This document shows positions 6,122-56,381 of a DNA stretch of 62,268 nt, piece after piece. A model generated the notes under the pieces. That model searched no databases. It was not told where the DNA came from and saw only the letters and a list, made by a program, of their open reading frames with translations. Each line of letters starts with the position of its first letter. The first letter of the stretch is position 1. A program made the translations under genes and the position numbers. Where the stretch lies: IMG/VR virus record IMGVR_UViG_3300012927_000093, positions 1 through 62,268 of that record. One strand, given 5' to 3'. The stretch is from a virus (Duplodnaviria; Caudoviricetes).

Positions 6122-6726
6122 TTAATCCCCAGGACATGCTCCGCTGTCGTCCAATTGGAAGCGATGGCGATCTGCGCCGCCGACAGCGTCACTTTCCCTG
6201 AGCATACCGCTGCGTGTAGGTCATTTTCGACAGTGTCTTTGCTATTCCGGAAGCCCTGACCTGGAAGGTCGGATGGCTGCGCCCAAAGGTTAGAAGTATC
6301 TGATGATCCACTTAATTCCAATGGAACTAGGTGATCATACTCGGTCGTTCCGCTACTCGCCGAGGCTTCGCCATACGCCCGCATCGAAGCTTTCTTCGCG
6401 GGACCAGTCTCGCTCACTGGCGGCCGGATGGTCGTGGCATACCCAGAAACGCAGATAGTGGTCTTAATATTCGCCTGCGTAACCGCGCTCGAGATAGATC
6501 CGGGCGTGCACACCGGGTCAGGCAACGGCTTGCCCGTAGCGCTCTTGCCAACCTTGCACGGCGACGCCCCCGGCAGGCCGGTGACGTGAGGGCTACCCGG
6601 CAGAACCTTCAGCGCGTCCGTCACCGGCGACGGGGCTTCGACGGCCGGAGCCGCGGCTGGTGGCGGCGCCGCGGGGTGGCACGCGGCGAGCAGGGCTACG
6701 CCAGCGAGCGCAACGAGGATCTTCAC
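6118..6726 (-). CDS. Lipoprotein with HNH/His-Me-finger nuclease-like domain
   Basis: Lipobox LLAAC, Pro/Ala linker, EYDHLVPLELSGS...SNLW motif, several Cys. Confidence 0.75.
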   Translation of the reverse strand: MKILVALAGVALLAACHPAAPPPAAAPAVEAPSPVTDALKVLPGSPHVTGLPGASPCKVGKSATGKPLPDPVCTPGSISSAVTQANIKTTICVSGYATTIRPPVSETGPAKKASMRAYGEASASSGTTEYDHLVPLELSGSSDTSNLWAQPSDLPGQGFRNSKDTVENDLHAAVCSGKVTLSAAQIAIASNWTTAEHVLGIK

Positions 6727-7817
6727 GGCTTCTCCCCCACCAGCGACGGACTACCCGGCGTACCGATCTGCGCCGACGCCAGAGACATCAGCACCGACGC
6801 CAGGGCGGCGCCGGCGGACAGACTCAACGTGGTGGTCCACGCGATGTGCAGGACGTCGATGGGACCCGCGCCGAGCAGGGTCAGGGCCGCCCCGACGAAC
6901 GCCTTCACCGCGCGCTCACCGGTCGCCTTCCAGAACGACACGGTGCCCATGTCGTCAGCGGGCGCCAGGGCTTGGATCGCGGGGTGGGCGGCGAGGTTGT
7001 TGGCCAGCTTGTCCACGTCGAGGCGCAGCTGCGGGGCTGGCGGCTTGGGCGCGTTCAGCAGCTGCTCGACCATCAGCGCCGTCTGGTACGTGGTCACGTT
7101 GTTGCGCTTGACGAACTCGAACAGGTCGTACTGCTCACCGTTGACCGGGTCGGGGATGTCGGTAATGCCGCCGCCCCACGGGCCTTCCCTGCGGTCCCAC
7201 ACCGACGCCATGCCATCTCCACTCGGTTCGGGTGTTCCCAGGCGGGTTTTCCACACGAGGTAGCGTGCGACCGCGTCGTCCGCGTACGCCTCGGCCGCCG
7301 GGCCGGAGCCGTTGTAGTCCCGGAACCCGCCGCGCATGCCGCTGTTACGAATGTGCGCGGCCAGGGCGGCGAAGCCGACGGTGACGTTGGCTTCCCACAG
7401 CCAGCACCCACCGGCCGCATCAGCCTGCGATTGATACCCCGACCAGGTAAGTTGGAGCGGCCCGCAGCCCTGGCGACCGGCCCTGCCAGCAAGCACCGCC
7501 TGCTTGTACGCGAGGTACGCAGGCTTGGTCACGATCGCGCCGGGGGCATACGTGTTCGGGGCGATGACCACGTGATCGTGGCCCCACACGTTGTTGCCGC
7601 CGCCGGATTCCTTGAGTAGAACGACAGCGGCGGCGGCCAGGTCCAGCCCAGCCGCCGCCGCGAGCTCGATCACCTCAGGCGCCCGCAGGATCCCGCCGGC
7701 GGTGAGGATGTCCGCTGGCGTAGCGGCGGCCAGCAGCGTCGTCTCCGGCTCCGGTGCGCCGAGCTCGACCCACCGATCACCTTCGGGCCGCTCCGGATGC
7801 CACTCCCAGTCGGACAC
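6723..7817 (-). CDS. Endolysin (lysozyme/SLT-like) fused in frame to an r1t-type holin domain
   Basis: KESGGG, GPLQLT and YNGSG lysozyme-fold motifs; C-terminal FWKATGERAVKAF...W...LS...AALASVLMSLAS...GSPSLV holin signature. Confidence 0.75.
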   Translation of the reverse strand: MSDWEWHPERPEGDRWVELGAPEPETTLLAAATPADILTAGGILRAPEVIELAAAAGLDLAAAAVVLLKESGGGNNVWGHDHVVIAPNTYAPGAIVTKPAYLAYKQAVLAGRAGRQGCGPLQLTWSGYQSQADAAGGCWLWEANVTVGFAALAAHIRNSGMRGGFRDYNGSGPAAEAYADDAVARYLVWKTRLGTPEPSGDGMASVWDRREGPWGGGITDIPDPVNGEQYDLFEFVKRNNVTTYQTALMVEQLLNAPKPPAPQLRLDVDKLANNLAAHPAIQALAPADDMGTVSFWKATGERAVKAFVGAALTLLGAGPIDVLHIAWTTTLSLSAGAALASVLMSLASAQIGTPGSPSLVGEKP

Positions 7818-7819
7818 GG

Positions 7820-8746
7820 TCAGTGCCCGACGTGCGGCGCCTTCGCCGCTTCATACGCCGCGATCTGCGCCTGGATGCTGAGCAGCAGCGCGTCAGCGGT
7901 CGTGGACGGTACCGGGGTAGGAACCGGGACTGGAGTGGGCACTGGAACCGGCACCGGGACAGGCGTGGGGCCAGTGGAGACGAACGGACCTGGCTGCCCG
8001 GTGACCTGCAAGAACGCCGCGTTGGCCGCGTTCACGTCCAGGCCTTCGGGGGTGAGGTTGTTCTTCACCCACTCCTGCGACACCGCGGCATAGGGCTCAT
8101 CCACGTAGGCGGTCCACGCGGCCGGGGTCATCTCGAAGTAGCCGCCCCAGGTGCTGCCCTTGATGTTGCCGCCCTTGGTGATTTTGTGGACGGCCACTGC
8201 GTGCCCGCCGAGGACGCGGTCCCGCTTCACGACGTCGAACACGGTGCCGTTGTTGAACGCGTTCTCGAAGCCCTGGGTGGCGGTGAACCCGATGTAGAGA
8301 TTCCCGAACAGATACAGCGCGGCGCGCATCTCTTCGAAGTCCTTGGGGTCGATAGCGAAGTAGGCGGCGAGCTTGTGCCCGGCAATGCCGGTCTGCTGCC
8401 AGTACTTGAGGACGGTCTGCATGTCGCCGCCCTGGTCGGTACTCGGGTTGCCCGGCACGTAGCCAGTGGACCCTGAGTAGAACTTGATGACGTCGGCGTT
8501 CGAGGGCACGATCGGCGCGCCCTGACCGAACTGGGAGAACGCGGTCTCAACGTGCGCGGCGGCGGCGGCGGTGCAGTCGCCGAGGCTGTCGTTGGAGTCC
8601 ATGGGGAGGTTCGCGGCGGCCGGTACGTAGGCCACCACGTCGGGCACCGTTCCGGCGTAACCGGCCTTCAGAACGCTCTTGAGCGGGATGCTCCGCACCA
8701 GGTCCCGGGGGGCACTGGGGAGCCTGCCCAACTTGTGCTTAGCCAC
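7820..8746 (-). CDS. Papain-like cysteine peptidase with a Pro-Val/Thr linker
   Basis: NDSLGDCTAAA (Cys), GGHAV (His), STWG; C-terminal (PV/PT)n linker. Confidence 0.75.
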   Translation of the reverse strand: MAKHKLGRLPSAPRDLVRSIPLKSVLKAGYAGTVPDVVAYVPAAANLPMDSNDSLGDCTAAAAAHVETAFSQFGQGAPIVPSNADVIKFYSGSTGYVPGNPSTDQGGDMQTVLKYWQQTGIAGHKLAAYFAIDPKDFEEMRAALYLFGNLYIGFTATQGFENAFNNGTVFDVVKRDRVLGGHAVAVHKITKGGNIKGSTWGGYFEMTPAAWTAYVDEPYAAVSQEWVKNNLTPEGLDVNAANAAFLQVTGQPGPFVSTGPTPVPVPVPVPTPVPVPTPVPSTTADALLLSIQAQIAAYEAAKAPHVGH

Positions 8747-8767
8747 GTGAGTCTCCTGTAAATAGGG

Positions 8768-8814
8768 CCAGCCACAACCCGCGCCCAGGAGACGGAAACG
8801 CGGGTTGTGGCTGG
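8768..8814 (-). terminator. Stem-loop, probable terminator
   Basis: Perfect 16-bp inverted repeat CCAGCCACAACCCGCG/CGCGGGTTGTGGCTGG, intergenic. Confidence 0.6.
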
Positions 8815-8836
8815 GGTAACGGGGTGAAGAGGCAGA

Positions 8837-9166
8837 TCAGCCGGCGGGCGGCGGGGTGGCGGTCACGTCGAGGGACGCAACAGCCGCCTGCAGACCACTG
8901 AGGTCGAGGGCGGGGTTAGCCTGCTGAAGGGCCGCGATTTCAGCGTTGATCGCGGCAACGTCGCTGGACACAGACGCGGCGAGGGCGTCCAGGTCGGCCT
9001 GAGTGACAGCCATTTTCTCTCCTAATTGAGTGATGATTCCCGTCTGGCCAAGGACGTAAGACCAGAGGTCATTGAGACGTCGATCGAATTCGACGTGGGT
9101 GACGTAACGACTGGACGGCGGCGGTCCGGGTTGGGGTCCGGGCGGCGGCCCTGGATGTGGGCTCAT
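8837..9166 (-). CDS. Small coiled-coil protein; strong internal in-frame start at 9013
   Basis: ATGA overlap with upstream gene; AGGAG RBS precedes the internal ATG (MAVTQADLDAL...). Confidence 0.6.
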   Translation of the reverse strand: MSPHPGPPPGPQPGPPPSSRYVTHVEFDRRLNDLWSYVLGQTGIITQLGEKMAVTQADLDALAASVSSDVAAINAEIAALQQANPALDLSGLQAAVASLDVTATPPPAG

Positions 9167-9384
9167 GGCGATGCCCTTCGTTGAAGCGGTATCTGGCGCG
9201 CTACGCACTCGTCCGCCAACCGGCGCACGATGCAGGGAAATTCGGTGGCCGCCATCTGGGTGCAGCAGCCGTTGCAGCTGCCGTCGGCGGCCTGGATGTG
9301 CTTCTGCTGCAGGTAGATGGCCCTGCCGAGGTCACGACTCAGGAAGTTCAAGACAGCCGACTGTGCCCGTTCCCCCGGCGTCAC
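9163..9384 (-). CDS. Small Zn-binding hypothetical protein
   Basis: H...CxxC...PC pattern; coupled to neighbours. Confidence 0.55.
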   Translation of the reverse strand: MTPGERAQSAVLNFLSRDLGRAIYLQQKHIQAADGSCNGCCTQMAATEFPCIVRRLADECVARQIPLQRRASP

Positions 9385-9387
9385 GGT

Positions 9388-10005
9388 TTAGGGGCCGGTC
9401 GGCTTGAGACTGATGAGCTTGGCGAAGACGATGGTCTGCTGCAGGTAGTTGTGCTGCGCGGTGTCCAGATCCCCCGGGCCGCAGGTGATGGCCACGAGTT
9501 CCGCGCCGTCCGCGTCGCCGTACACGGCTTTAGTGGGGAACGCCGACTTGGCGATGATCAGAACTTTGGACACCTTGAACGTCGCTGTCTGCGCATCGGA
9601 GCGCAGCACGGAGAGTTCGGCGCCCACCTTCACCTTCGCCAGGTCGGCGAAAGCGCCCTGCACGTGGTTGGCGTTGATGTGCCCGACGATCACCGCACGT
9701 TCTACTGCCTGCGGGTATTTTCCGACAGCACTGTCGCCGGGCACCGGACTTTGCCGGAACCAACCGATCATCCGGGGCGACGACAGCGGTGGCACACCGA
9801 GTGTGTGATCGGGGTTGAGATCGACCTGCATGGTCAGGTTGTCGTCCAACTCCAGGGACGGGATCTTGACCGAGGTGATCGTCACGCTCGACGTCACCGG
9901 CGGCGGCGCGGTTCCCGGCGAGGTCTCGTTCGGCGGCGCACTCGGCGCCGCTGGATGCGAACAGGCCGCCAGGATCAGGACGAAGACGACCAGTCCGGTC
10001 CGCAG
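9388..10005 (-). CDS. Class F sortase, lipoprotein-anchored (likely CTG start)
   Basis: IPSL, GWF...PG, VIVGH (His), F..L..VKVG, FPT..VYG, LVAITCG (Cys), NYL; signal (M)RTGLVVFVLILAAC. Confidence 0.88.
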   Translation of the reverse strand: MRTGLVVFVLILAACSHPAAPSAPPNETSPGTAPPPVTSSVTITSVKIPSLELDDNLTMQVDLNPDHTLGVPPLSSPRMIGWFRQSPVPGDSAVGKYPQAVERAVIVGHINANHVQGAFADLAKVKVGAELSVLRSDAQTATFKVSKVLIIAKSAFPTKAVYGDADGAELVAITCGPGDLDTAQHNYLQQTIVFAKLISLKPTGP

Positions 10006-10172
10006 GCCTCGGCTCTTGCTTTCACGAGGGCGGCGATGAGTTCTTGGACGGACTCCGCCGACAACAAGACTGAAGGGCCGTCCGTGCGGTTGGGTCCGCG
10101 CATGGTCACGAGAACGAGACCACCCACGGACCCAACCAGCACCGAACCGTTGCCGCCGTCGCGGGCCGGCAT
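9975..10172 (-). CDS. Hypothetical protein overlapping the sortase 5' end
   Basis: 65 aa ORF between the substrate and sortase genes. Confidence 0.5.
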   Translation of the reverse strand: MPARDGGNGSVLVGSVGGLVLVTMRGPNRTDGPSVLLSAESVQELIAALVKARAEACGPDWSSSS

Positions 10173-10183
10173 TGGTCACTAGC

Positions 10184-11215
10184 TCAGACGGCTCGGTTGT
10201 GCGCCAGCACGAACGCCGCGCTGTCGCCACCGGTCTGCACCGGACCCGACGGAACCGGACCACTGGCCACCGGAGCCGGCGACGCCAGCGGAGCCGGGTT
10301 GGCCGCCGCGTCGTTGCCACTCGGAGCCGGGGCCGGGTCCGCGTAGGCCACCGGCGCTTGCACGATGACGACGGGCGGGTTGGGGTCGTTGCAGATGGTG
10401 CGCAGCTGCCCCAGGGTCCGGTTCCAGTCACCGAAACGCTGACCGTCCAGGTTGCGTAGCCGCAGCCAGTCGTTGCGCTCCGACAAGCTCAGCAGGTCCA
10501 GGTTGGTGCCGTTGAAGCCCTGGTGCAGCTGGCCCAGGCGCAAACGCAGGCCGCCCCAGTCGCGGCGAACACCGTTCAGCTCGTCGCCGAAACGCTGTGC
10601 GTCGGCGCGGAAGGTGACGCACTGACCATCGTTGCTGACGCTGACGCCGCCGTTGCTACAGCCCTGGTGCAGCGCAAACCAACGGGCCTGCGGGTCTCCA
10701 CCAAGCAGGCGGAGAATCCCATCACGGTGTACGCCGTTGCGGAGCAGGAACGTGTTGTAGTCACCGTAACCGCAGGTATCCAAGGACAGGTTCTGGTCCA
10801 GCCACAACTGGTGGCCGAAGGTGCGCGGTCCACCCCACGGTCCACCCCACGGGAATCCCGGGTTGCCGCAACGGACGTTGTTTCCAGAGCAACCCACAAT
10901 CGGGCCAGGTGCGCAGTGGTCACCAACACGGTGAGTGCCAAGCGGGCAGAAGATCTGCGGGTCGTTGAGGTTGCCGCCAATGCCCAGGTGCACGCCAAGG
11001 TCGATCGAGTCAGAGCACGAGGTAGCCGCCGCGAGGATGGTGCACGGTGCCAGCTGGTGTCCGTTCGGCAGGGTCGGAATGCACGTGGCACCAGCGATAC
11101 CGGTGCATGAAACATCGTGACCCCTACTCGGAGCGGCCGAAGCCACCCCCGCAGTTACAACGAGACCGAGCACTACCGCCAGGGCGGCAAAGCCGGCGAC
11201 CAGCAGTCGTCGCAT
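10184..11215 (-). CDS. Secreted Cys-rich protein, candidate sortase F substrate
   Basis: Strong RBS AGGAGG, Sec signal (…VASA/AP), many Cys, Pro/Ala linker ending PVPSGPVQTGG. Confidence 0.75.
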   Translation of the reverse strand: MRRLLVAGFAALAVVLGLVVTAGVASAAPSRGHDVSCTGIAGATCIPTLPNGHQLAPCTILAAATSCSDSIDLGVHLGIGGNLNDPQIFCPLGTHRVGDHCAPGPIVGCSGNNVRCGNPGFPWGGPWGGPRTFGHQLWLDQNLSLDTCGYGDYNTFLLRNGVHRDGILRLLGGDPQARWFALHQGCSNGGVSVSNDGQCVTFRADAQRFGDELNGVRRDWGGLRLRLGQLHQGFNGTNLDLLSLSERNDWLRLRNLDGQRFGDWNRTLGQLRTICNDPNPPVVIVQAPVAYADPAPAPSGNDAAANPAPLASPAPVASGPVPSGPVQTGGDSAAFVLAHNRAV

Positions 11216-11328
11216 GATCTTTTAACCTCCTGTGTTGAACACACCCAGCCAGGGAGCGTTCAGGGCCCACCTCCAGGTATGGAGGCGGGAGTTCTAGGCC
11301 CTTAGCGGGCATTTAGGGGCGCGCTGTA

Positions 11329-11928
11329 TCAGCGCGGAGCGCGTGGACCACCGCGTGGCCAGGGTTGGGGCCACACCTCGCCGGGCGCGCCGGAGAAGCC
11401 GCCTAGGCCGGGCATGTCGTACTGCGGGTAGACCGGCACTGACTGCTGGATCGGGTGCGTGCGCAGATACGCCGCGACCGCGGCCTGGATCTGGGCCTGG
11501 GTCGGCGCCGGGGCTTTGAACATGTCCGGGTTGGCCGCGATGAACGCCTGGACCGCGGCCGCGATCTGGGCCTGGGTCGGGCCGACCGGCGCGGGGGTCG
11601 GCCGCTTCGCCAGCTCCTGCCGCACTAGCGCTTGCACTTGATCCTGGGTCACCGCATCCGGCGGCGGCCCATACGGAGTGGCCTTTACTCCCGCCGCCGC
11701 TTCGCACAGCCCAGCGGCGGCCAGCCGGGCGCCGACGTCGCCGCCTTGATTGCACAGCGCCAGGATCGGATCCGCGATGCCGTTGGCCTGGGCAACCGCG
11801 GCGTGCTTCTCGTCGTCCTGGTGGCGGCTGACGGAGATGGAGATCCAGGTGGTAGCCGCTACGGCGATAGCAACGAGGACGACGAATACACCACTCCGCG
11901 CGGGCCGCCGCGGCCGGTGCTGCCCCAT
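11329..11928 (-). CDS. Membrane-anchored Pro/Gln-rich protein
   Basis: N-terminal TM; repeated PTQAQIxAAVxA motif. Confidence 0.7.
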   Translation of the reverse strand: MGQHRPRRPARSGVFVVLVAIAVAATTWISISVSRHQDDEKHAAVAQANGIADPILALCNQGGDVGARLAAAGLCEAAAGVKATPYGPPPDAVTQDQVQALVRQELAKRPTPAPVGPTQAQIAAAVQAFIAANPDMFKAPAPTQAQIQAAVAAYLRTHPIQQSVPVYPQYDMPGLGGFSGAPGEVWPQPWPRGGPRAPR

Positions 11929-12353
11929 TACTTAGATGGGGGCGGTTGTTGCGTGGTGGGTGTCGGCTTCGGCACCAGCGGCGTCGTGCACGCCAGATGC
12001 GTGTAGCTGGCCCGGAACTGGGAGAAAATCTGCTCGTAGGTCTGGCGGTCCACCCCGGGCGCCCGAGTGATCGGGTTGTAGGAGCCGAGGAACGCACTGT
12101 AGAGCGGGCACAGCACTTCCGCACGGGTGTCATCCAACGCCGCCGAGGTCTGAGCTTGGCTGTTCCACAGAAACAGCAGCCCTACGGTGAGGGACACGTC
12201 CAGGATGACGGCCAGCACGATGCCGAAGGTGCGCCGCTCCGACTTCTCGGCCCGAGTGACTAGCGCGGCCACGGAGTCGCGTAGGCCGTTGACTACCTCG
12301 GTGAGCGACGTGGCGACCGCCAGTAGTTCACGGTTGCTGTCTGATTCGCTCAC
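11928..12353 (-). CDS. Membrane protein (coiled coil + TM + extracellular Cys pair)
   Basis: GTGA overlap start; a single TM FGIVLAVILDVSLTVGLLFLW. Confidence 0.65.
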   Translation of the reverse strand: MSESDSNRELLAVATSLTEVVNGLRDSVAALVTRAEKSERRTFGIVLAVILDVSLTVGLLFLWNSQAQTSAALDDTRAEVLCPLYSAFLGSYNPITRAPGVDRQTYEQIFSQFRASYTHLACTTPLVPKPTPTTQQPPPSK

Positions 12354-12520
12354 TCCGACTCCCCCGCTTCCTGCTCGTGTTCGATCTGCTTGGTTCGTTC
12401 GTTGAGCAGAACCGCGTACCGCTCGAGCTTTTTCACCGCCGCGTCCAACTCTTGAATTACGTCCTTGGACTCGACCAGCAGGCGGTCCATCTTCGGGGTG
12501 GGGCGCCACAGCGGACTCAC
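12350..12520 (-). CDS. Small coiled-coil protein (not in ORF track)
   Basis: MSPLWRPTPKMDRLLVESKDVIQELDAAV..., 56 aa, GTGA overlaps at both ends. Confidence 0.6.
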   Translation of the reverse strand: MSPLWRPTPKMDRLLVESKDVIQELDAAVKKLERYAVLLNERTKQIEHEQEAGESE

Positions 12521-12792
12521 GGGTCATCACCGCCGCGACGGGTGGCACGCAGGAACGACGCCAGCGCATCGGTCATTCGAGTCATGACCGGGATGACCTG
12601 CTGCTGGAACATCTCGTTCTGCTTACGTAGCTCGCCCTCAAGGGTGTCGTTGCGTTCGCGTTCGCGCTTGAGGTTGTCGCGGGCGTCCTTGTACATCACC
12701 CACGCCCACCACAGCGCGATCGCCGCCAGAGCGCCGCCGGGCCCGTACTGCAGCAGCACCGAAGACGGGTCGGTGGCGTCGGCGAGGGTCAC
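12517..12792 (-). CDS. Small membrane protein (holin/lysis-accessory-like)
   Basis: QYGPGGALAAIALWWAWVMY TM followed by a coiled coil. Confidence 0.6.
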   Translation of the reverse strand: MTLADATDPSSVLLQYGPGGALAAIALWWAWVMYKDARDNLKRERERNDTLEGELRKQNEMFQQQVIPVMTRMTDALASFLRATRRGGDDP

Positions 12793-32774: not shown

Positions 32775-33128
32775 CTACGGGACGGGAAACGGATCGGGCA
32801 CACGAGAACCCAGGTTGATCTCACGGTGGACGGTGATCTGCTCCCCGTCGCGTTCGCCGTACTCAAGCCATATGATCTTGTTGACGATGTCGGTGCCAGC
32901 TTCGCCTTGGCGCTCCACCCAGTGCGTCAGCAGCACTTCGGCCGGGTCGATGCCGTGCGCGGAGAACCAGTCCTGCCAGAGCTGCACATGCCCGGCTGAC
33001 TCGTGGTTGATGTCCTCGCGGAAGTAGTCCCGCACGTGGTAGTGGCCGTCTTCGGTGCAACCGTGGTCGGGACCACGGGCGCTCTGCGGGCAGCGGCGTA
33101 GCTGGGAACCACGCTTACGGTGTTCCAT
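32775..33128 (-). CDS. Hypothetical protein (N-terminal C..H.C..H)
   Basis: 117 aa, overlaps the upstream gene. Confidence 0.55.
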   Translation of the reverse strand: MEHRKRGSQLRRCPQSARGPDHGCTEDGHYHVRDYFREDINHESAGHVQLWQDWFSAHGIDPAEVLLTHWVERQGEAGTDIVNKIIWLEYGERDGEQITVHREINLGSRVPDPFPVP

Positions 33129-35049
33129 AGAACGCCTTCTGGTTCGCTTCGGCGGTCATCCGATCCAAGGTCGGCAGCACCGACGCCCAGAACACCGCCT
33201 CACTGAAATTCATGGCCAGCGGGGCGAGGGACCCGCTGCGGACCACGCCGCCAATGGCGAAACGGTCCCTCGTGGGCTCACCAACACCCCGGACGTAGGC
33301 GACCGGTGCTAGGTCGACCGCCGCGTCCAGCCACTGGGCCATCACCGTGCCGGTGTCTGTCCCTGACATTTGGTGGATGGAGCCGTTGAACGCGTTGCCG
33401 GCGCCCTGGTAGGTGGCGTCACTGGACACGATCTGAATGGAGACCAGCGGGCGGGCCCTGGACAGTCCGCCACCGGCGACGTTGTCCGGTTGGTTTAGCC
33501 CGTACTGGAAGTTGGTTTGGGCGATGACCGCCTCGGCCCACCAGCGTTTCTGCGCGACCGGGGTAGCGGCAGTCAGCACCCCGCACACCGACGCTGAACC
33601 AGCGGCAAACAGGTTCGGCGTCGTCGAGAACACCACGTCGTCGACACCGTCGAACGTGGCCGCGGGCTTCCCACCGGAGGTGATCACCGCGCCGGATGAG
33701 ACGAGCTTCGGCTGTGTGGTGGTGGTGGCCTGAGTGAGGTGCCTCGTGTTACCGGACTGGTCGTACCAGGTGTCTACGAAACCGTCACCGGCCCCGCAGA
33801 AGGTCAACAAGCTCGCGGTGTCCAGGGCGCCGGAGACGAACCCGATGTCCTGGGTGGTGCTGTCGGAGCTGCGGCGCACCTTGACCGCGCTACCGGCATA
33901 ACCAGGCACGACGAGGCGCAGCGAGTAGGCGCGGGCGGGAACGACGGACTGCCCGAGCCCGTGGTCAACCGGCGTTGCGGACACCGTGGCGGACACCGTT
34001 CCCGGCCCGGCAGTGGACACCGGGATCACCCGGAAGTCATAGCTCGTGCCGGTAGTCAGCCCCGTCGCGTTTGCGGTGAGGCCGGCCGTTGTGGTGGCGA
34101 TGGAAACCCACGTGCTGCCAGCGGTGGTTTTCTGCTGAAGGTTGTAGGCCCCGGCCCCGGACAAGGCGCTCCAGGTCAGGGTGAGCGCGGTGGCGCCGAC
34201 GCTGCTGGTCGCCAACCCCGTGACCTGACCCGGTACGGCTGGCGGGGTGGGGTCGGACGCGCCGGTGAGAACACGCTGGTAGGCGTCGAACATGCTCCGA
34301 CCCATGACCCGCTGCGCGACGGCGTTGTAGTGGTTACCGTCGCCGAGGTTCTGGCCGTATACCCCCGCCGCGATCCGACACCGGGTGTTCCTTCCGGGAG
34401 TCCCCAAATGCACCGTGTTGACCGCCGCCCTGGTGCCGGTGGCCAGGTACTCCGGGACCATCTGCCCCATCACGAACGGCAGGCTGGGCAAACCCAGGTC
34501 GGTGCGGGCGCCGGTGATCAGCGCATCCAGGTCGGTTTGATGCGTTGCGCCGCTGATCCCGTTGTCGCCGTCGGTTTCGCCCTGAATCCAGAGGATTGCC
34601 GCGATCCGCGCGTTCGTTCCCGCCGCCGCGAGTGCTGCTTGTGCCTGCGCGACGGCTTGGGCGTAGAGACCACCCGCCACGCCTCGGCGCCACCCAGTTG
34701 CCGATGCGGTTGACAGCTGAGTGCCGCCGAGCGCGGACGGCACCAGCAGAACCCTGCGGTTCACTGGGGACGAATGCAGGTACCAGCGGGCGAACACCAG
34801 GCCAGGGCCGATTCCGGACGGCACGTCCAGCATGGCCAGCGGCTCAATAGCTTGGGAGATGACGCCGGCGTAAGTGCCCGACGCGCCCCACTGCTGAATG
34901 CGCGGATCGGACGGGTCGTAGCGGGTCGTGTCGTAGGGGGTGCCCCTGCCGCTCATGTTCGACTGACCCCACAACAGGATCAGGTCATAGCCGACATCGG
35001 CGGTGCTCAGGGCAGCACTGGCGGACGACGAGACATTTAGCTTCGACAC
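33115..35049 (-). CDS. SGNH/SASA carbohydrate acetylesterase + FN3 + lectin-like domain
   Basis: GQSNM (Ser), WIQGETD, DGNH (Asp-His); FN3 PGQVTGL...LTW...GLTTGTSYDFRV; AYSLR...WYDQSGN...FDGVDD. Confidence 0.85.
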   Translation of the reverse strand: MSKLNVSSSASAALSTADVGYDLILLWGQSNMSGRGTPYDTTRYDPSDPRIQQWGASGTYAGVISQAIEPLAMLDVPSGIGPGLVFARWYLHSSPVNRRVLLVPSALGGTQLSTASATGWRRGVAGGLYAQAVAQAQAALAAAGTNARIAAILWIQGETDGDNGISGATHQTDLDALITGARTDLGLPSLPFVMGQMVPEYLATGTRAAVNTVHLGTPGRNTRCRIAAGVYGQNLGDGNHYNAVAQRVMGRSMFDAYQRVLTGASDPTPPAVPGQVTGLATSSVGATALTLTWSALSGAGAYNLQQKTTAGSTWVSIATTTAGLTANATGLTTGTSYDFRVIPVSTAGPGTVSATVSATPVDHGLGQSVVPARAYSLRLVVPGYAGSAVKVRRSSDSTTQDIGFVSGALDTASLLTFCGAGDGFVDTWYDQSGNTRHLTQATTTTQPKLVSSGAVITSGGKPAATFDGVDDVVFSTTPNLFAAGSASVCGVLTAATPVAQKRWWAEAVIAQTNFQYGLNQPDNVAGGGLSRARPLVSIQIVSSDATYQGAGNAFNGSIHQMSGTDTGTVMAQWLDAAVDLAPVAYVRGVGEPTRDRFAIGGVVRSGSLAPLAMNFSEAVFWASVLPTLDRMTAEANQKAFYGTP

Positions 35050-37696: not shown

Positions 37697-37902
37697 CATC
37701 CGCTGGATGCGACATCAAGATAGATCGTCAGCTATGCGGTAGCCAACTCAGTCTCCGGCAGGTCGTGGACTTCGATGACCTAGGAGTCACCCACACCCGC
37801 ACGTTGTGCGCGTTGCACCAGGCGCGCTACTTCGATGCACGCTACGTACGAGAGCCGGCATTCGTGCAGACGCTGTCGTTCCGGCACGTACCCGTCGAAT
37901 GA
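37693..37902 (+). CDS. Small Zn-finger protein B (paralog of A)
   Basis: CDIKIDRQLCGS...CALH. Confidence 0.65.
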   Translation: MTSAGCDIKIDRQLCGSQLSLRQVVDFDDLGVTHTRTLCALHQARYFDARYVREPAFVQTLSFRHVPVE

Positions 37903-39134
37903 CCGTCTTCGTCGATGGCGGACTGGCCGGTGAGGACGTGCATCTCCTCGTCGGTCAGTCCGTCGTCACCGTGCCTGGCATTGGCCGCTACCGCATCAAC
38001 GACAACGGCACGTCCACGCTCATGACCGGCTCGAGAGGAAAACCGAAGGTGACCGATTTCAGCGAGTTTGCCGCCCGCATGGGCATCAAGGTGAAGGAGC
38101 CGAAGCCCGTTGTGGTGCGCGAAGCCGCATCGGCGGCTTCGAGGTCCAAGGCAGTGCGACCGACCGACATCATCACGATGATCGGTCAGGAGAAACTGCG
38201 CGTGCGGCTGACAGCCCATATGCGGGCCTCGAAGCTGCTCGGCAAGCCGGTGGGTCACATCCTGCTGCAAGGCCCTCCAGGTCTCGGCAAGACCAGCATT
38301 GCGATGCTCATTGCCGACATGGCGGGTGGCGATCTCGTCATCGCATCCGGTGATGCGCTCAAGACGCCCGAGACGCTGGTCAACGAGCTCGGAGAGCTCA
38401 AGGACGGCGACGTGTACTTCATCGAGGAGATGCACGGTCTGCCCGAGAAGCCCAAGCGCACGTTGTTGACCGCGATGGAGGACGGTCGCGTGGACATCGC
38501 GGTCGGCTCCGGTTCGCGCAGCGTCGTCGAGTCCAAGATGCTGAACGACTTCATCCTGGTCGGCGCCACCACCGAACCGGGCAAGCTCCCGCAGCCGCTA
38601 CTCGACCGATTCGCCATCCGTGGGTCGCTGGACTACTACGACGCTGACGAGATCGCCGAAATCATCACCCAAGCCGCTAAGCGCGACCGCATCAAGATCG
38701 AAGAGGAAGCGGCTACCGAACTAGCGCACCGCAGCCGGCGCACGCCCCGGATTGCGCTCAACCTGCTGGCAATGGCCCATGAGTACGCGGTGGCGTCCGC
38801 TGACTCGACCGATGTACCGGTCACCGTGCTGGACGTCAACCGGGCCCTGGAGATGGAGGACATCGACCACAACGGGCTGACCAAGGCAGACCGCTCGGTG
38901 CTGTGGGACCTGTGCAAGGTGCACAAGGGCGGTCCGGTGGGCCTGACCAACCTGGCCACCGGCGCGGACACCGACAACCGCACGCTTGAGTCCATCGAGT
39001 CGTACCTGATCCGGGCCAAGTACATCATCCGCACCGGTCAGGGCCGGGTGGCGACGAACTGGGGATTCGAGGCTGTCGGGCTCGAGCCGCCGGTGACCGC
39101 GCCGCACGCGGAGGACATGGAGATGGAGGACTAG
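37899..39134 (+). CDS. ruvB: RuvB-like Holliday junction branch-migration AAA+ ATPase with N-terminal extension
   Basis: VRP...IGQEK, HILL.GPPGLGKT, FIEEMH, AMED, LVGATT, PLLDRF, SRRTPRIA, GGPVGL, E.YLI...RT.QGR. Confidence 0.88.
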   Translation: MTVFVDGGLAGEDVHLLVGQSVVTVPGIGRYRINDNGTSTLMTGSRGKPKVTDFSEFAARMGIKVKEPKPVVVREAASAASRSKAVRPTDIITMIGQEKLRVRLTAHMRASKLLGKPVGHILLQGPPGLGKTSIAMLIADMAGGDLVIASGDALKTPETLVNELGELKDGDVYFIEEMHGLPEKPKRTLLTAMEDGRVDIAVGSGSRSVVESKMLNDFILVGATTEPGKLPQPLLDRFAIRGSLDYYDADEIAEIITQAAKRDRIKIEEEAATELAHRSRRTPRIALNLLAMAHEYAVASADSTDVPVTVLDVNRALEMEDIDHNGLTKADRSVLWDLCKVHKGGPVGLTNLATGADTDNRTLESIESYLIRAKYIIRTGQGRVATNWGFEAVGLEPPVTAPHAEDMEMED

Positions 39135-39481
39135 ACCCGGTCGTTCTTGTGCGAGTTGCAACCCCTGCACAGCACGGCGTAGTTGCTCGACTCGTGCATG
39201 AGGTCGGGGCGCACGGTGCGAGGAATGATGTGGTCAGCCGTGAGCTGCTGCGTTCCCGTCGCGTTCGGCACCACCGGATGCGGCGGGAAATCGTTCCACC
39301 CCGGACACACCCACCCGTAGCGAGCGACCCAGTCTGAGATCAGCTGGTGCGCGATGCGCTGGTGTTGCCGCCCGAGCCCCTTGGACGTGGCGCTGGCCCG
39401 GTAGCTGGCGGTTCCGCACTTGCCCCCGCACCGTGAGCCGCGGGTGGGTTGTCCGCAGGCAAGGCACGGTTTGAGCGCCAT
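39131..39481 (-). CDS. Packaging-type HNH endonuclease
   Basis: KPCLACG; LTADHIIP...N..VLCRGCNSHK; position upstream of the end region and terS. Confidence 0.85.
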   Translation of the reverse strand: MALKPCLACGQPTRGSRCGGKCGTASYRASATSKGLGRQHQRIAHQLISDWVARYGWVCPGWNDFPPHPVVPNATGTQQLTADHIIPRTVRPDLMHESSNYAVLCRGCNSHKNDRV

Positions 39482-39546
39482 CGCCGGCGTCCCTTCAGCA
39501 CGTCACGTCTTAGCTGGCATCCGGCGCATTCGCATCGCACAAACAC

Positions 39547-39585
39547 TTGGCATCCATATCATGTTGCTGTAAGCTTCTGTGCATG
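39547..39585 (+). promoter_or_regulatory. Leaderless sigA-type promoter, copy 3
   Basis: TTGGCA-17-TAAGCT-TCTGTGC-ATG. Confidence 0.7.
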
Positions 39586-39843
39586 ACGACGACGAGCTCG
39601 GTGGAGATGACGATCAGCACCTTCGGCCCCGACGGTGCCGTGTTCCTGGCTCCGACCACCAGCACTTGCCCCGACACGTGGCGCGAGGAGCTCGCCAAGA
39701 AGCGGCGCAACCGGAACCTGGCCGAGATCGCCGGCGGCTTCGAGTTCGACTCTTACTGCCCCGGCTACTGGGACCACCAGGAGGACGCCGAGTACATGCA
39801 GGCGATCCGCACTCGGGTCACGTTCACCTCGAAGGAGATCTGA
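39583..39843 (+). CDS. Hypothetical protein
   Basis: 86 aa leaderless ORF upstream of ku. Confidence 0.6.
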   Translation: MTTTSSVEMTISTFGPDGAVFLAPTTSTCPDTWREELAKKRRNRNLAEIAGGFEFDSYCPGYWDHQEDAEYMQAIRTRVTFTSKEI

Positions 39844-39844
39844 C

Positions 39845-40636
39845 ATGTTCTCGAAAGCCACCTGGACCGGCACCATCTCGTTCGGCCTGGTCTCCGTGCC
39901 GGTCAAGCTGTACGGCGCGACCGAAGAGCACGGAATCGAAACGCATGAAGTCCACCCGGTCGACGGGGGTCGGGTGGGCCACAAGCGCGTGTGCAAGGAC
40001 TGCGACAAGGAGATCGCGTATGGCGATCTAGGCCGCAGCGTGGTCGATGTCGATGGCCACACGCACGTGTTCACCAAGTCCGAGCTCGACGCGCTGTCCG
40101 ACGCAAAAGACCACTCGATCACCCTGGACAGTTTCTGCGATCCGGACCAGATCGACCCGCTGTATCTGAGCAAGACGTATTACGTGCGGCCGGACTACAT
40201 GATCCGCAAGCGGGGCGATGCGCCCCGCGCGAACAAGCCGTTCGCGGTGTTCGCCGCTTCGTTGGCCAGCTCAGGCAAAGCGGCCATCGGTCGCGTCGTG
40301 ATGCGGTCGCGGGAATCCCTGGTGGCCATCACCATGCGCGAGGACGTGATGGTGCTGCGCGTGGTGCTGTGGGCCGATGAGATCCGTCAGCCGGTGTTCC
40401 AGGAGCCCGAGGTGCCAGTGGTGGACGTTCCCACTCAGCACGCCATGGAGGCGCTGCAGCTCATCGACGCGCTGACCATCAAGTTCGACATCAACTCGCA
40501 CGTGGACCGGCGCGAGCTCGCGCTGTCGGACCTGATCGCATCGCGGCGCGAGCCGGTCGAGAGCACGGACAGCGACGCCCAGGTGATCGAGCTGTTCAAC
40601 CGGCTGCCCAAGCCCGCCGTCACGCACGCCGTGTGA
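39845..40636 (+). CDS. ku: Ku DNA end-binding protein (NHEJ)
   Basis: WTGTISFGLVSVPVKLYGATE, GRVG.KRVC, IDPLYL.K.YY, AIGRVVMR.RE.L, LWADEIR; RBS AAGGAG. Confidence 0.93.
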   Translation: MFSKATWTGTISFGLVSVPVKLYGATEEHGIETHEVHPVDGGRVGHKRVCKDCDKEIAYGDLGRSVVDVDGHTHVFTKSELDALSDAKDHSITLDSFCDPDQIDPLYLSKTYYVRPDYMIRKRGDAPRANKPFAVFAASLASSGKAAIGRVVMRSRESLVAITMREDVMVLRVVLWADEIRQPVFQEPEVPVVDVPTQHAMEALQLIDALTIKFDINSHVDRRELALSDLIASRREPVESTDSDAQVIELFNRLPKPAVTHAV

Positions 40637-46724: not shown

Positions 46725-48938
46725 TCATTCGGGGTCCCCTTCACGCTGTTCCCAGACGTGATTTCCGGTCTTGCTCGCGCCCTTCACTGGGTGCAGTCGG
46801 TCCAGGTCGATGAGCGATTGCCAGGCCCGCTGGACGGTGTCCTCGGACCACCGCGGGTCGCCCTTCTCGTCCGTGTAGAGACGGAAGACCGCCTTGCGCG
46901 CTTGGGTCAGGCTGAACCCGACGGACCCCCTCGCCGAGTACCGCATGAACCGGGCGAGGGGCTTGATTGCGTTCGCGCCCTTCCCGCTGAACACCTGGAT
47001 GTCGTCCGGCAAGATCGGCTGCAGCGGGTCGTTCCAGTTGTCGTCACGCTCGAAGTCCGGTGCGACGGCCCTGATCTCGTCCTCCTCCAGGGGGACGCAC
47101 ACGGCCGGGGGGTCCACGTCCGGGCCGTGCAGCACGGATGGGACCTGGACCAACTTGAAGGCCCACTGCGTGCCCTCCGAGCCCGACTTGTCCCGGGTGA
47201 CCTCGACGTAGCGGATCCCGTTCTCGTTCGTGACGCGAACCTCGGTCTCGACCCCGCCCTTCTGCGCGTTCGAGCCACGTACGCGAGAGTCATCGGTCAG
47301 TCCGGAGTGATCGATCAGCACGACGGCGGCGCCCTTGGCCGTGTCGCGGATGCGGTGCAGCACGCGCAGCATCTGCCCGTAGTCGTCGCCCTGGCTCTCC
47401 TTGCCGGCGAACATCAGGTTCTTTGTGTCGAGCACGATCAGGTCGGGCTGGTCGCGCTCGACCAGATGCATGTACTGGCTCGCGCCCGCGTCGGTCAGCA
47501 GGATCGGCGTCGGCAGGACCGAGAACCACTCGTCCAGCTCCGCGACGTCCACGTCGTGGTACTTGAGCCATGCCTGCGTGCGCAGCATGTTGGTGGCCTG
47601 GCCCTCGGCCATGATGTAGTGCACCTTGCGCCGACCGAGCGAGCGGCCGCGCCAGTGTTTGCCGGTGGCCAGGCACAGCGCGATGTCGAGCACCAGGAAG
47701 CTCTTGGCCGCCCCGGGCGCGCCGAACACCACGCTCAGCCCGTCGCGGTAGAACATCCTGGGCACCAGGTACTCCGGCGCCGGCGAATCCAGGAACTCCG
47801 ACGCGGACAGCAGCCGCAGCGGCTCGCGCCCCTCCAGGTCGAGCTCGGCCCTGACTTCCCGCCGAAGCCGCTCCTTGCGCTTCTCGGCCGCCTTCTCGCG
47901 CTGGTAGGCGGCCTCGAGCACGTCCGTGTCAGACGGGTCGTCCGGGTCGAGAACGACCCACGGAGAGTCATTGGCCTGCGTACGGGCCTCGTCGTAGACG
48001 ATCGTTCGGTCGTCGTCGTTCGGATTGGCCCGCCACACTTCGCGCACCGCCTGTTTGACCTGGCGCAGCATGGTGACCTCGTCGATCAGCTCGCAGTCCA
48101 CCAGGCGCCAGCCGTCCAGCGCGGCGAGGTAGAGCGAGTGCCGGAATGCCTCCCCGTTGGGCTTCAGTCCTTCCGGAACGGCCAGGGTGGAGACGGCGGC
48201 CAAGTGGCGCTCGTACTGCGCGCGCAGCACGTCCTCCGTGCCGTAGCGCGGATCGTTGTTCCAGTCGCCTGACCGAGAGGACGTCGCGCCGCCGGCCGAA
48301 ACCAGATCCAGCTTCCGCTTCGGCGACGTACGTAACTGCACTTTGATCCAGTCGGGCAGCGGCGCCGGCATGGCGAACGCATCCTCGGCCTCATAGACGT
48401 GCCCGGACCAGTGCACCGAGCCAGCGGCCATGACGTAGCCGCCGCTGCCCTTGCCGCCGCGTACGTCGATGTGCCAGTCCTCGAGGGCGCCGGCCGAGTT
48501 GCCGAACTCGTTCCGAGGGTCTTCGAAGTAGTAGTGCCAGCCCCGCGAGGTGCGCACTCGGTAGGTCAGGGGCACCCCCTCGCCGATGGATGCCGCGAGC
48601 TTCTCTAGCGCGCCGAGCGTGTCCTCATCCAGTACGAGCAGGCCGGATGGTCCGCAGGCCAGCCCGACGTTGCGGAGCTGGCTGCCGAACCAGAGGTTCA
48701 ACATCCCGTCGGTTGGCTCGGACGCGGTCATCGTGCCCCAACCGCCGACGGGGTGCTTGCCCCGCTTGTCCGACGGACAGTCTCCGAACTTCTCCCGGTT
48801 CTCCTGGCACTTCTTCCCAGTGCCGGCGCAGACCGGGATGAGGGGATGGTCCGCCGGGAACGGGCGCCAACCCCGGGTGGCGACCATGTCCGCGACTCCG
48901 CGCGCATGTACAGGTAGGTGCTCCACGGCCGCGCTCAC
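46725..48938 (-). CDS. Bifunctional primase-polymerase fused to a RecA-type (AAA_25) helicase
   Basis: GKHP, NVGLACG..GLLVLDED, RTSRGWHYYF, IDVRG..GYV; GAPGAAKSF, LIVLDT, LIDHSG, RGSNA. Confidence 0.9.
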   Translation of the reverse strand: MSAAVEHLPVHARGVADMVATRGWRPFPADHPLIPVCAGTGKKCQENREKFGDCPSDKRGKHPVGGWGTMTASEPTDGMLNLWFGSQLRNVGLACGPSGLLVLDEDTLGALEKLAASIGEGVPLTYRVRTSRGWHYYFEDPRNEFGNSAGALEDWHIDVRGGKGSGGYVMAAGSVHWSGHVYEAEDAFAMPAPLPDWIKVQLRTSPKRKLDLVSAGGATSSRSGDWNNDPRYGTEDVLRAQYERHLAAVSTLAVPEGLKPNGEAFRHSLYLAALDGWRLVDCELIDEVTMLRQVKQAVREVWRANPNDDDRTIVYDEARTQANDSPWVVLDPDDPSDTDVLEAAYQREKAAEKRKERLRREVRAELDLEGREPLRLLSASEFLDSPAPEYLVPRMFYRDGLSVVFGAPGAAKSFLVLDIALCLATGKHWRGRSLGRRKVHYIMAEGQATNMLRTQAWLKYHDVDVAELDEWFSVLPTPILLTDAGASQYMHLVERDQPDLIVLDTKNLMFAGKESQGDDYGQMLRVLHRIRDTAKGAAVVLIDHSGLTDDSRVRGSNAQKGGVETEVRVTNENGIRYVEVTRDKSGSEGTQWAFKLVQVPSVLHGPDVDPPAVCVPLEEDEIRAVAPDFERDDNWNDPLQPILPDDIQVFSGKGANAIKPLARFMRYSARGSVGFSLTQARKAVFRLYTDEKGDPRWSEDTVQRAWQSLIDLDRLHPVKGASKTGNHVWEQREGDPE

Positions 48939-49555
48939 GTCCCGAACCGCTCGGATCGTGCAGCCCTGTACGCCGCGTCGATGTGACGCCCCTCGAATGG
49001 TGCGTACGTCTTGTAGCCCGCGCCGTACTCGCTGCCCTCGTGTGCGCCGTACAGCGCCAAGTGGCACTTAGCTGTGCCCATCAGGGTGTGAGCCATGTTT
49101 TCCTGGCACCAGTGGCGCTGGCTACCCAGGGAGCAGTAGGACTCGTCTCCCCACGGGTCCGCCGAGTCGCAGAACGCAACTGGCCACGTGCGCGGCTCGA
49201 TCCCGTACGCCATCAACGGGGATTCCCAGGTGCGCATCTGGTCCGCGTAGCTGCGAGGCATCCCTCGGGCCACAATCAGGGGTGTATGAGACTCGGCCGC
49301 GAGCGCTGCGTGGCGCGCGTCGATCGGCGAGTTCGGCGGCTTCACCTCGAACCACTGGTGATAGCCGTAGTTCTTGATCTGAGGGATGGAGATTCGGAAG
49401 TCCGGCAGGTACTTCCCGGCGGACGTCTCGAACCCCTCCGGTTCGTGTTCCCATTCGACGCCCATGCGGTCAAAGAAAACCGCCCAGCGAGCTTCGCTTC
49501 GAGACCGGAACAGGCAGCCCGCGTACTCGGTCTCGATAGCCTTGATCCCGTTCAC
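48935..49555 (-). CDS. PD-(D/E)XK nuclease-like protein
   Basis: IETEYAG..FRSR.EARWA.FFD...W.HEPEG...YLPDF...EVKP. Confidence 0.8.
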   Translation of the reverse strand: MNGIKAIETEYAGCLFRSRSEARWAVFFDRMGVEWEHEPEGFETSAGKYLPDFRISIPQIKNYGYHQWFEVKPPNSPIDARHAALAAESHTPLIVARGMPRSYADQMRTWESPLMAYGIEPRTWPVAFCDSADPWGDESYCSLGSQRHWCQENMAHTLMGTAKCHLALYGAHEGSEYGAGYKTYAPFEGRHIDAAYRAARSERFGT

Positions 49556-55774: not shown

Positions 55775-55919
55775 CAAACAGTATCGAGCTGTGTCGAGGA
55801 GTGTCAAGCGTTGATGTCAAGTTGTGTCGGTTGGACGCTAGCACTCCTTGACAAAGATCCGGACCTACCTAGACATAGGCGCCCTTGCGTTTGACATCTC
55901 CGCAGGTCAGCCTTGGTCA
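55775..55919. promoter_or_regulatory. Divergent lysis/lysogeny switch region
   Basis: TTGACA/TAGACA hexamers at 55802 and 55815 (minus strand) and 55848, 55870, 55891 (plus strand), between xis and the repressor. Confidence 0.7.
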
Positions 55920-56381
55920 ATGGGCAGCGACGGGGACCTTCTGAGGGCTGCGCGCGAGCGCCTACGCCTGACTCAGGGGGAGCTGGCATCCAAGGTCGGA
56001 GTTAGCCGGGCAACGGTGGGTAGCTGGGAAAAGGGCACCCCACCCCGAAGTAGCCTTGGCCTGATACGCGAGGTGCTAGGGCTCGACGAGCACCTTCAGC
56101 CGGCCGGCTCGGGGGAGACCATGAACTTCGCCGCGATGACCAACGGCGAGCTCGTGGCGCGCATGAACACCCTGGTCGCGCAGCTGAACGTGATGTCGGT
56201 CGAGGTGGCACGCCGGTTGAAGGATGGCGACTTCGACACAGTCGACCAGGCCGCTGCCAGCAAGGCTGGTTACTCACAGCGACTAATCAACGGCCGGTTC
56301 ATCATGGACGTCGAAGACATCGAGCTGGACCCGCCGGACGACGAGGCGGGCAGCGCCGAAGGATCTTCCGTTAGTCAGTGA
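55920..56381 (+). CDS. XRE-family immunity repressor
   Basis: LRAARERLRLTQGELASKVGVSRATVGSWEKG. Confidence 0.85.
   Translation: MGSDGDLLRAARERLRLTQGELASKVGVSRATVGSWEKGTPPRSSLGLIREVLGLDEHLQPAGSGETMNFAAMTNGELVARMNTLVAQLNVMSVEVARRLKDGDFDTVDQAAASKAGYSQRLINGRFIMDVEDIELDPPDDEAGSAEGSSVSQ

Follow-up and report, generated by a model that had tools for sequence, protein, structure and literature searches.

The subject of this work is a stretch of 62,268 nucleotides (nt), hereafter the window, which is the complete IMG/VR virus record IMGVR_UViG_3300012927_000093 (linear, ~91% complete according to CheckV). On its minus strand, the window encodes a class-F-type sortase (9388..10005) and, upstream of it, a predicted secreted protein of 343 amino acids (aa; 10184..11215) that carries a conserved tag near its C-terminus. 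On the sequence data, we hold it somewhat probable that these two proteins form a dedicated sortase-substrate pair, that the pair is a fixed cassette in a lineage of temperate actinobacterial phages, and that the enzyme attaches its partner to the cell envelope.

The sortase gene encodes a putative lipoprotein precursor of 205 aa when read from a CTG codon at 10005-10003. The protein matched Pfam family PF04203 with 42 bits (gathering threshold 26.6; E 9.6e-11). Its best NCBIfam family was class_F_sortase (NF033748; E 9.2e-36), with a score of 122.8 bits (123.5 bits in a second scan) that lies under the curated cut-off of 166 bits and is taken up below. The AlphaFold2 model of the enzyme has a mean predicted local distance difference test score (pLDDT) of 87.0. 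When this model was compared with the PDB using Foldseek, the top matches were all sortases of classes A, C, D and E (115 matches at E <= 0.001; probability 1.00 and template modelling score up to 0.78 by target for the top matches), in agreement with the eight-stranded beta-barrel fold of sortases. By sequence, only weak matches to class C and class A enzymes were found in the PDB (E 5e-4 or worse), and the BFVD structure library gave no match to the sortase at E <= 0.001. The catalytic His lies in the motif VIVGH (codon 9681-9679) and the catalytic Cys in ITCG (codon 9483-9481); numbered from the signal peptide, these residues are His109 and Cys175, and both are invariant in an alignment of 28 sequences. 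As judged by eye, the N-terminus of the enzyme contains a hydrophobic core followed by the lipobox L-A-A-C (Cys codon 9963-9961), and its relatives have equivalent lipoboxes and short lipoprotein signal peptides. The original prediction, made from the DNA sequence alone, had named a lipoprotein sortase with catalytic His and Cys; the sortase and the two residues are borne out by Pfam, NCBIfam, fold and alignment. Combined, these data support the assignment of the phage enzyme as a sortase, probably of the lipoprotein type, belonging to the class F radiation.

The neighbouring protein starts with a predicted signal peptide (approximately aa 1-28) that was recognized by eye only, from its basic start, hydrophobic core and Ala-x-Ala site, and that is nearly invariant in the relatives. 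It is followed by a hypervariable Cys-rich part (aa 31-120), a conserved core (aa 121-285) and a Pro/Ala linker, such that the conservation profile shows a hypervariable outer part between nearly invariant ends. The protein contains 12 Cys and no Lys. The absence of Lys from all 343 residues compares with a background of 3.6% in 24 other proteins of the window (P about 3e-6), and 21 of the 22 substrates checked have between 0 and 3 Lys. The number of Cys is even in all 22, as expected for disulfide-bonded exported proteins. The hypervariable part, the even Cys count and the scarcity of Lys would suit a protein that is exposed at the surface, is subject to diversifying pressure and is barred from serving as its own acceptor. 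The passenger part matched no Pfam, NCBIfam or PHROG family, the ESM Atlas returned nothing usable, and a VIA-align comparison with 48,161 chains reached a best Z of 3.4.

The linker leads into the tag P-S-G-P-V-Q-T-G-G (10226..10252, minus strand), presumed to be the sortase recognition site, and a tail of 13 residues (10187..10225). This tail, as seen in the open reading frame (ORF) and the alignment, is short and hydrophobic and has no membrane segment. The original description of a Cys-rich 343-aa protein with a Pro/Ala linker, the ending PVPSGPVQTGG plus 13 residues and no transmembrane segment holds in these points, with secretion as a prediction and with the qualification that one His and one Arg are present in the tail. 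In the substrate model, a helix was placed at aa 333-342 with low confidence. The tag can be generalised as P-x-G-x-V-x-T-G-G and is not an LPXTG pentapeptide, with which it has only T-G in common. When every open segment of 60 aa or more in the six frames of the window was inspected, this protein alone had such a motif within its last 45 residues. The tag is conserved in the family, and both residues of its Gly-Gly are invariant in an alignment of 35 sequences, which speaks against the possibility raised with the original prediction that the motif might not be conserved in homologues of the substrate.

To describe the tag across the family, a strict pattern, [VILTAP]-P-x-G-x-x-x-X-G-[GD], was applied to 88 family sequences, some of which are fragments. 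It fits 52 of them, with Thr at position X in 43, and in 51 of these 52 only 4-15 residues follow the first Gly. A single family member, P0088, has the same tag followed by a full hydrophobic membrane segment and a basic end, resembling a classical sorting signal. Together, P0088 and the tail counts tie the tag to sortase-type sorting and make the tail-less state the rule in this family. With its motif conserved in homologues and its tag varying with the sortase (see below), the 343-aa neighbour is a plausible dedicated substrate of the enzyme.

The same tail raises the question whether the sortase acts as a processing protease only, either removing the 15-residue end or hydrolysing the thioester, so that the passenger or the small C-terminal peptide is set free, for example as a signal passing between phages or between cells, and no attachment takes place. 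The tail columns have an identity of 0.63, compared with 0.42-0.49 for the linker, which is more conservation than a discarded leaving group needs. The lack of a membrane retention segment in the substrate and of the canonical catalytic Arg in the enzyme (see below) would also suit simple proteolysis. In the wider family, however, the tail is short and variable (4-15 residues, and 1-3 residues past Gly-Gly in distant loci), unlike a conserved released peptide, and the bacterial relatives with the same kind of tag mostly have the retention segments typical of wall anchoring. We consider processing without attachment unlikely.

Attachment by a dedicated pair is further suggested by the way the two genes are kept together. 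A word-based search yielded 26 relatives of the sortase and 35 of the substrate, all on contigs of up to about 70 kb. A profile search of 1.84 billion representatives found only 57 relatives of the substrate, so the substrate family is small. The DNA of seven viral and two binned contigs was read in addition to the window, giving 10 phage-like contigs. In eight of these loci (window included), the same gene order was found: a minor tail protein, several small membrane proteins, the secreted protein, an ORF of 63-69 aa, the sortase, a 73-aa Cys-rich protein, a coiled-coil protein and the lysis genes. In two distant viral loci (L004 and L005), the sortase directly follows a secreted protein that was missed by the substrate profile. 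Whether they are unrelated to the substrate or lie beyond the reach of the profile search, both proteins terminate in a tag of this kind with only 1 or 3 residues past Gly-Gly, and the pairs lie just upstream of an amidase or CHAP lysin gene. The pairing and its site just upstream of the lysis genes are thus kept in the window and nine further contigs. The synteny check proposed with the original prediction accordingly found the order of the pair retained across all 10 contigs, and the predicted placement of the pair in the late/lysis region agrees with the position of the cassette between tail and lysis genes. The statement that the sortase lies just downstream of the 343-aa protein was correct as to order, but a conserved 65-aa ORF lies in between. 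A metagenome scan with the substrate profile, in which an unspecific pattern was used, gave at least 598 stretches, with one partial locus among the matches listed. A tblastn search of 50,697 deposited phage records found no match to the window sortase, the substrate or a bacterial class F sortase.

The tag and the enzyme also vary together, with the tag variant tracking the sortase variant in 8/8 loci. A T-G-G tag is paired with a Gln-type sortase in four loci, a Thr-less x-G-G tag with an Asn-Arg type in three, and an S-G-G tag with another Gln type in one. The second sortase type (L008, L009 and L010) has Asn-Arg where the first has Gln-Thr, and its partners have a Pro-rich run before the Thr-less tag; the cut site in this variant may differ. 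The substrate body does not follow the sortase variant: that of L008 is 56% identical to the body of the window protein, yet it carries the other tag and is accompanied by the other sortase type.

Pairs of a similar kind are found in bacteria. We sampled 61 genomes from the order around one of the binned genomes and found matches to the class F model in 53 of them, showing class F sortases to be common in actinobacteria. A total of 46 class F loci were read, with partners picked automatically apart from four loci set by eye; six of the 46 were left without a partner assignment. In at least 31 of the 46 loci, the upstream gene on the same strand encodes a partner whose Gly-rich tag is followed by a membrane segment and a basic end, and many of these partners are DUF4397 proteins. 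In nine of the 46, the partner is tail-less and ends in T-G-[DG], and eight of the nine partners are Ice-binding-like proteins beside lipoprotein sortases. The earlier statement that class F sortases usually adjoin proteins with a PxGxVxTGG-like C-terminus fits the 46 loci. This neighbour relationship was not found in the literature searched, nor was DUF4397 together with a sortase, supplementary files lying outside that search. The missing anchor of the phage protein had been taken as a hint at a non-canonical transpeptidation. The tail-less tag is real, but it is not unique to the phage, since the nine bacterial loci are alike in this respect. As a separate observation, one locus outside the Ice-binding-linked group (L049, on contig 70 of bacterial genome G041) has a class F sortase whose upstream neighbour, a protein of 144 aa, also has a tail-less tag, T-G-G-G-G plus 3 residues.

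A sortase tree of 58 rows, rooted at the midpoint only, places the 11 phage-like sortases on one side of a branch (support 92/80). A group of 25 rows (94/94) unites them with 14 bacterial class F rows (eight Ice-binding-linked and six other), while the 18 DUF4397-linked sortases stand apart from this group (99/96). In this tree, the phage enzymes nest inside the bacterial class F radiation, and we read the pair as one that was captured by the phage lineage.

The Ice-binding-like (PF11999) pairs of the eight bacterial loci resemble the phage pair in having a lipobox sortase with its partner directly upstream and in falling into the same 25-row group. Their partners end in P-x-G-P-V-x-T-G-D plus about 22 residues, likewise without a membrane segment or basic end. 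In contrast to the phage pair, they are chromosomal, carry another passenger domain and have Asn at the position equivalent to the catalytic Arg, and no small gene separates the two genes, which overlap by 4 nt. No paper describing pairs of Ice-binding-like proteins and class F sortases was found. The DUF4397 (PF14344) and other actinobacterial class F pairs share with the phage a dedicated upstream partner with a Gly-rich tag, for example P-S-G-[VI]-P-G-G-T-G-G. Unlike the phage substrate, however, these partners keep the membrane segment and basic end, and the DUF4397-linked sortases make up the separate 18-row clade.

The expression of the sortase in the window is less straightforward than its fold. 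The 65-aa ORF between substrate and sortase (9975..10172, minus strand) is read in a frame other than that of the sortase and runs at its end into the sequence for the sortase signal peptide. A counterpart of 63-69 aa is present in 8/8 cassette loci. Differences between loci are fewest at the second and most numerous at the third codon position (648/487/717 for positions one to three), the GC content at the third codon position (GC3) exceeds that at the second (GC2) in 8/8 loci, and gene callers annotated the ORF in three records. Its product matched no family in the searches. Considering its conservation, the codon-position pattern, the GC contents and the gene calls, the small ORF is taken as a real gene. 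Its stop codon falls within the signal-peptide sequence of the sortase, and it may couple translation of the sortase to its own.

There is no ATG, GTG or TTG codon at the signal peptide of the window sortase, where a CTG is found instead. At the same position, the relatives have ATT, ATC, GTT or CTG, and only one of the eight loci has ATG. The sole canonical in-frame start in the window is GTG at 10179. The signal peptide and lipobox are intact in 8/8 loci and so must be translated. The options for the start are a near-cognate codon, re-initiation after the small ORF or dual coding from GTG 10179. Translational re-initiation takes place in bacteria and would offer a possible route to the sortase start. 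We rejected as unsupported a programmed -1 frameshift by which ribosomes would pass from the small ORF to the sortase, no in-frame X-XXY-YYZ heptamer being present in the 5/5 loci examined. A 263-aa sortase initiated at GTG 10179 would overlap the small ORF with its first 58 codons, over which codon-position variability and GC3 favour the frame of the small ORF; this candidate was likewise set aside. All 26 sortase homologues cover at most 78% of the 263-aa form. Amino-acid identity does not separate the overlapping frames (61% mean in both), and the 263-aa form is possible through dual coding. Of four sequencing runs compared, contigs of a possible source run agree with the region at every base (0 differences) and so give no sign of an assembly error, a comparison that is not independent of the assembly; the other runs contain short conserved pieces. 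No RNA run was listed for 8800-12600.

Several observations weigh against an envelope-attaching pair and need to be considered together. The window substrate lacks a membrane-spanning retention segment or classical signal and has only 13 residues after Gly-Gly. The second tag variant has a variable residue other than Thr before Gly-Gly, which leaves the scissile bond uncertain. The covariation of tag and sortase could result from plain physical linkage, because the two lie about 250 nt apart. The structure prediction of the substrate that had been suggested with the original prediction was run and produced a poor AlphaFold2 model (pLDDT 57), and the passenger has no functional assignment. On the side of the enzyme, a CTG takes the place of a canonical start codon at the signal peptide, and the class F score falls under the curated cut-off. 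Many bacterial class F matches, the DUF4397-linked sortases included, likewise score below 166 bits. Furthermore, the canonical catalytic Arg on the strand after the Cys is absent from the window sortase, and the aligned residue is Gln. Because of this absence, its chemistry may differ from that of the studied sortases. By alignment, this site is Gln in the window and in L002, L003, L012 and L013, and Asn then Arg in L008-L010, while it is Asn in 29/29 bacterial class F sortases examined; the Gln of the window therefore departs from the residue typical of the sampled bacterial members. In a review, the passage on catalysis has all sortases use His-Cys-Arg (PMC8225981). This universal statement does not describe class F as sampled here.

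The CTG at the signal-peptide start, the Gln at the Arg-equivalent site and the low class F hidden Markov model score would be expected if the pair were non-functional in this phage, its sortase having lost start codon and Arg while the neighbours were kept by linkage. We regard such decay as very unlikely. The reading frame, signal-peptide core, lipobox, His and Cys of the sortase are intact in 8/8 loci in spite of identities of 40-83%. Near-cognate codons (CTG, ATT and ATC) recur at the same position in separate sublineages, which looks like a state that is tolerated or used, and the bacterial class F enzymes examined also lack the Arg there (29/29).

If the pair does act in attachment, the 343-aa protein would be exported by Sec and fold outside the cell with disulfides. 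The sortase, lipid-anchored on the outer face of the membrane, would recognise the C-terminal P-x-G-x-V-x-T-G-G, cut the tag, most likely after the Thr, and form a thioester with Cys175. The protein would then be passed on to an amine of the envelope, most likely in the peptidoglycan cross-bridge or the lipid II precursor. As a result, the infected or lysogenic cell would be decorated with a phage protein whose outer part varies between phages. Some phages produce lipoproteins that block their own receptor, and by analogy receptor masking or the exclusion of other phages is the favoured role; receptor masking had also been proposed with the original prediction, next to lysogenic conversion and a lysis accessory. 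Because of the position of the cassette, an aid to lysis is also possible.

The acceptor might instead be another protein. In this case, the sortase would join the secreted protein into a polymer, as class C sortases do with pili, or to the phage membrane proteins encoded at 11329-11928, 11928-12569 and 12517-12792. These three membrane proteins, which have outside domains, lie directly upstream and are conserved with the cassette, and the lack of Lys in the substrate would preclude self-linking and leave a single defined acceptor elsewhere. On the other hand, a Lys-free substrate is unable to polymerise through Lys in the manner of pilins, and no pilin-like fold or motif was found with the poor AlphaFold2 model and the structure comparison. 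Joining of protein to protein is, in our view, quite unlikely.

A more elaborate form of the envelope-attachment proposal, which we put forward tentatively and regard as doubtful in its entirety, would combine most of these features. Here, a lipid-anchored class F sortase would graft a Lys-free, disulfide-rich and hypervariable phage protein onto the host wall by means of a tail-less tag and thereby re-surface the cell, for example by blocking the receptor used by the phage itself, so as to prevent superinfection or keep progeny from being lost on debris. Re-initiation coupled to the small overlapping gene would keep the sortase scarce, and the pair would reveal the recognition signal of class F.

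In the literature, the role of class F sortases is still open, and the part of one report available to us describes a quadruple knockout in Actinoplanes that was without phenotype (PMC13251363). The only studied member, from Propionibacterium (Cutibacterium) acnes, has the same class assignment and is likewise a Cys transpeptidase. In the passages available from two sources, it is reported as an LPXTG-using housekeeping enzyme (PMC8225981, PMC13251363), whereas the phage tag is not LPXTG. For phage-borne sortases, only one report was found, a 2026 preprint, available in part, on modules of sortase B and its substrates in huge gut phages (bioRxiv 10.64898/2026.10.24.761521). As far as the available text goes, this system is also phage-encoded with a putative substrate immediately upstream, but it belongs to class B, occurs in Bacillota phages of >200 kb, keeps His, Cys and Arg and acts on substrates with a full classical sorting signal. 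In contrast, the sortase described here is of class F type and lipid-anchored, belongs to an actinobacterial phage of ~62-69 kb and is paired with a tail-less substrate. Class E sortases, which recognise LAXTG and anchor the chaplins of Streptomyces, are comparable as actinobacterial wall-anchoring enzymes, and class E structures are among the best fold matches. Judging from the portions of the literature available, they differ in their motif, in having a transmembrane anchor, in keeping the Arg and in serving many substrates instead of one dedicated neighbour.

With just one enzyme, one substrate and a clearly conserved tag, the compact phage pair provides a direct handle on the recognition signal, the scissile bond and the acceptor. 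If the proposal is correct, the pair would reveal the long-unknown recognition signal of class F sortases, and a temperate phage of medium size that covalently remodels the wall of its host would represent a new type of interaction between phage and host. An enzyme of this family that works on a tag without a tail and dispenses with the Arg could then also be of interest for protein ligation.

Two further genes complete the cassette, both on the minus strand. The 73-aa Cys-rich protein (9163..9384), which has no signal peptide, begins 3 nt past the sortase stop codon and is conserved in L002, L010, L012 and L013. The last gene (8837..9166), whose ATG overlaps the preceding stop codon, encodes a 109-aa protein with a Pro-rich start and a predicted coiled coil. 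Neither protein could be assigned to a family or matched in the deposited phages.

Upstream of the cassette, a 113-nt spacer (11216..11328, minus strand) contains conserved stem-loops and a strong ribosome-binding site. In an alignment of six loci, its mean column identity is 78%, with compensatory changes in 4/29 predicted pairs, and the spacer of the window folds with -56.5 kcal/mol (z -4.54). On the other side, a 90-nt spacer (8747..8836, minus strand; -50.4 kcal/mol, z -3.77) contains a perfect 17-bp hairpin, a U-containing stretch and the ribosome-binding site of the lysin gene; the hairpin looks like a terminator. With structured spacers on both sides, the five cassette genes have the look of a delimited unit set between the tail genes and the lysis genes. 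A moron-like independent unit of a prophage would be expected to have its own promoter and terminator. Rfam gave no match over 8700-12700, and a scan for sigma-70-like promoters, which suits actinobacteria poorly, found 0 sites. The DNA of the upstream spacer and of the substrate gene over its first ~55 bases (11160-11328, minus strand) hardly varies among 6-8 loci, even at synonymous sites; the mature proteins of such loci are 33-82% identical. The signal peptide of the substrate is rich in A/T-ending codons, with the genome GC3 near 0.85. This near-invariant 5' region might act as an RNA element, or it might mark a recombination boundary at which the variable part is swapped.

The surrounding genome contains a siphovirus late module on the minus strand (large terminase, portal, protease, major capsid, major tail, a 1651-aa tape measure and minor tail proteins) and a holin gene. 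A tyrosine integrase (56853-58100) and a helix-turn-helix regulator (55848-56381) mark the record as a temperate phage, presumably of soil actinobacteria. The terminase shares no more than 38% identity with its counterparts in cultured actinobacterial phages, which places the record in a lineage of actinophages without cultured members. The contigs of two relatives were binned with a Nocardioides and a Streptosporangiaceae genome, a mere hint at the host. Proteins identical to the window sortase and the 65-aa ORF are recorded on contigs of ~69.5 kb, so that the full genome is probably about 7 kb longer than the window.

Some other regions of the window deserve mention. The gene at 6723-7817 (minus strand) encodes a 364-aa protein with a C-terminal r1t-type holin domain (Pfam, E 2e-19) and no family match over the first 290 residues. 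A lysin or another enzyme may here be fused to a holin, and the same architecture is present in L012. Just upstream of the terminase region, a 644-aa protein (33115-35049, minus strand) combines a SASA-type carbohydrate esterase with fn3 and a weak arabinofuranosidase-like part, and may be a virion-borne enzyme acting on glycans of the host surface. Finally, the regions 37806-40636 and 46725-49067 encode a RuvB-like ATPase, a Ku homologue and a primase-polymerase with an AAA domain.

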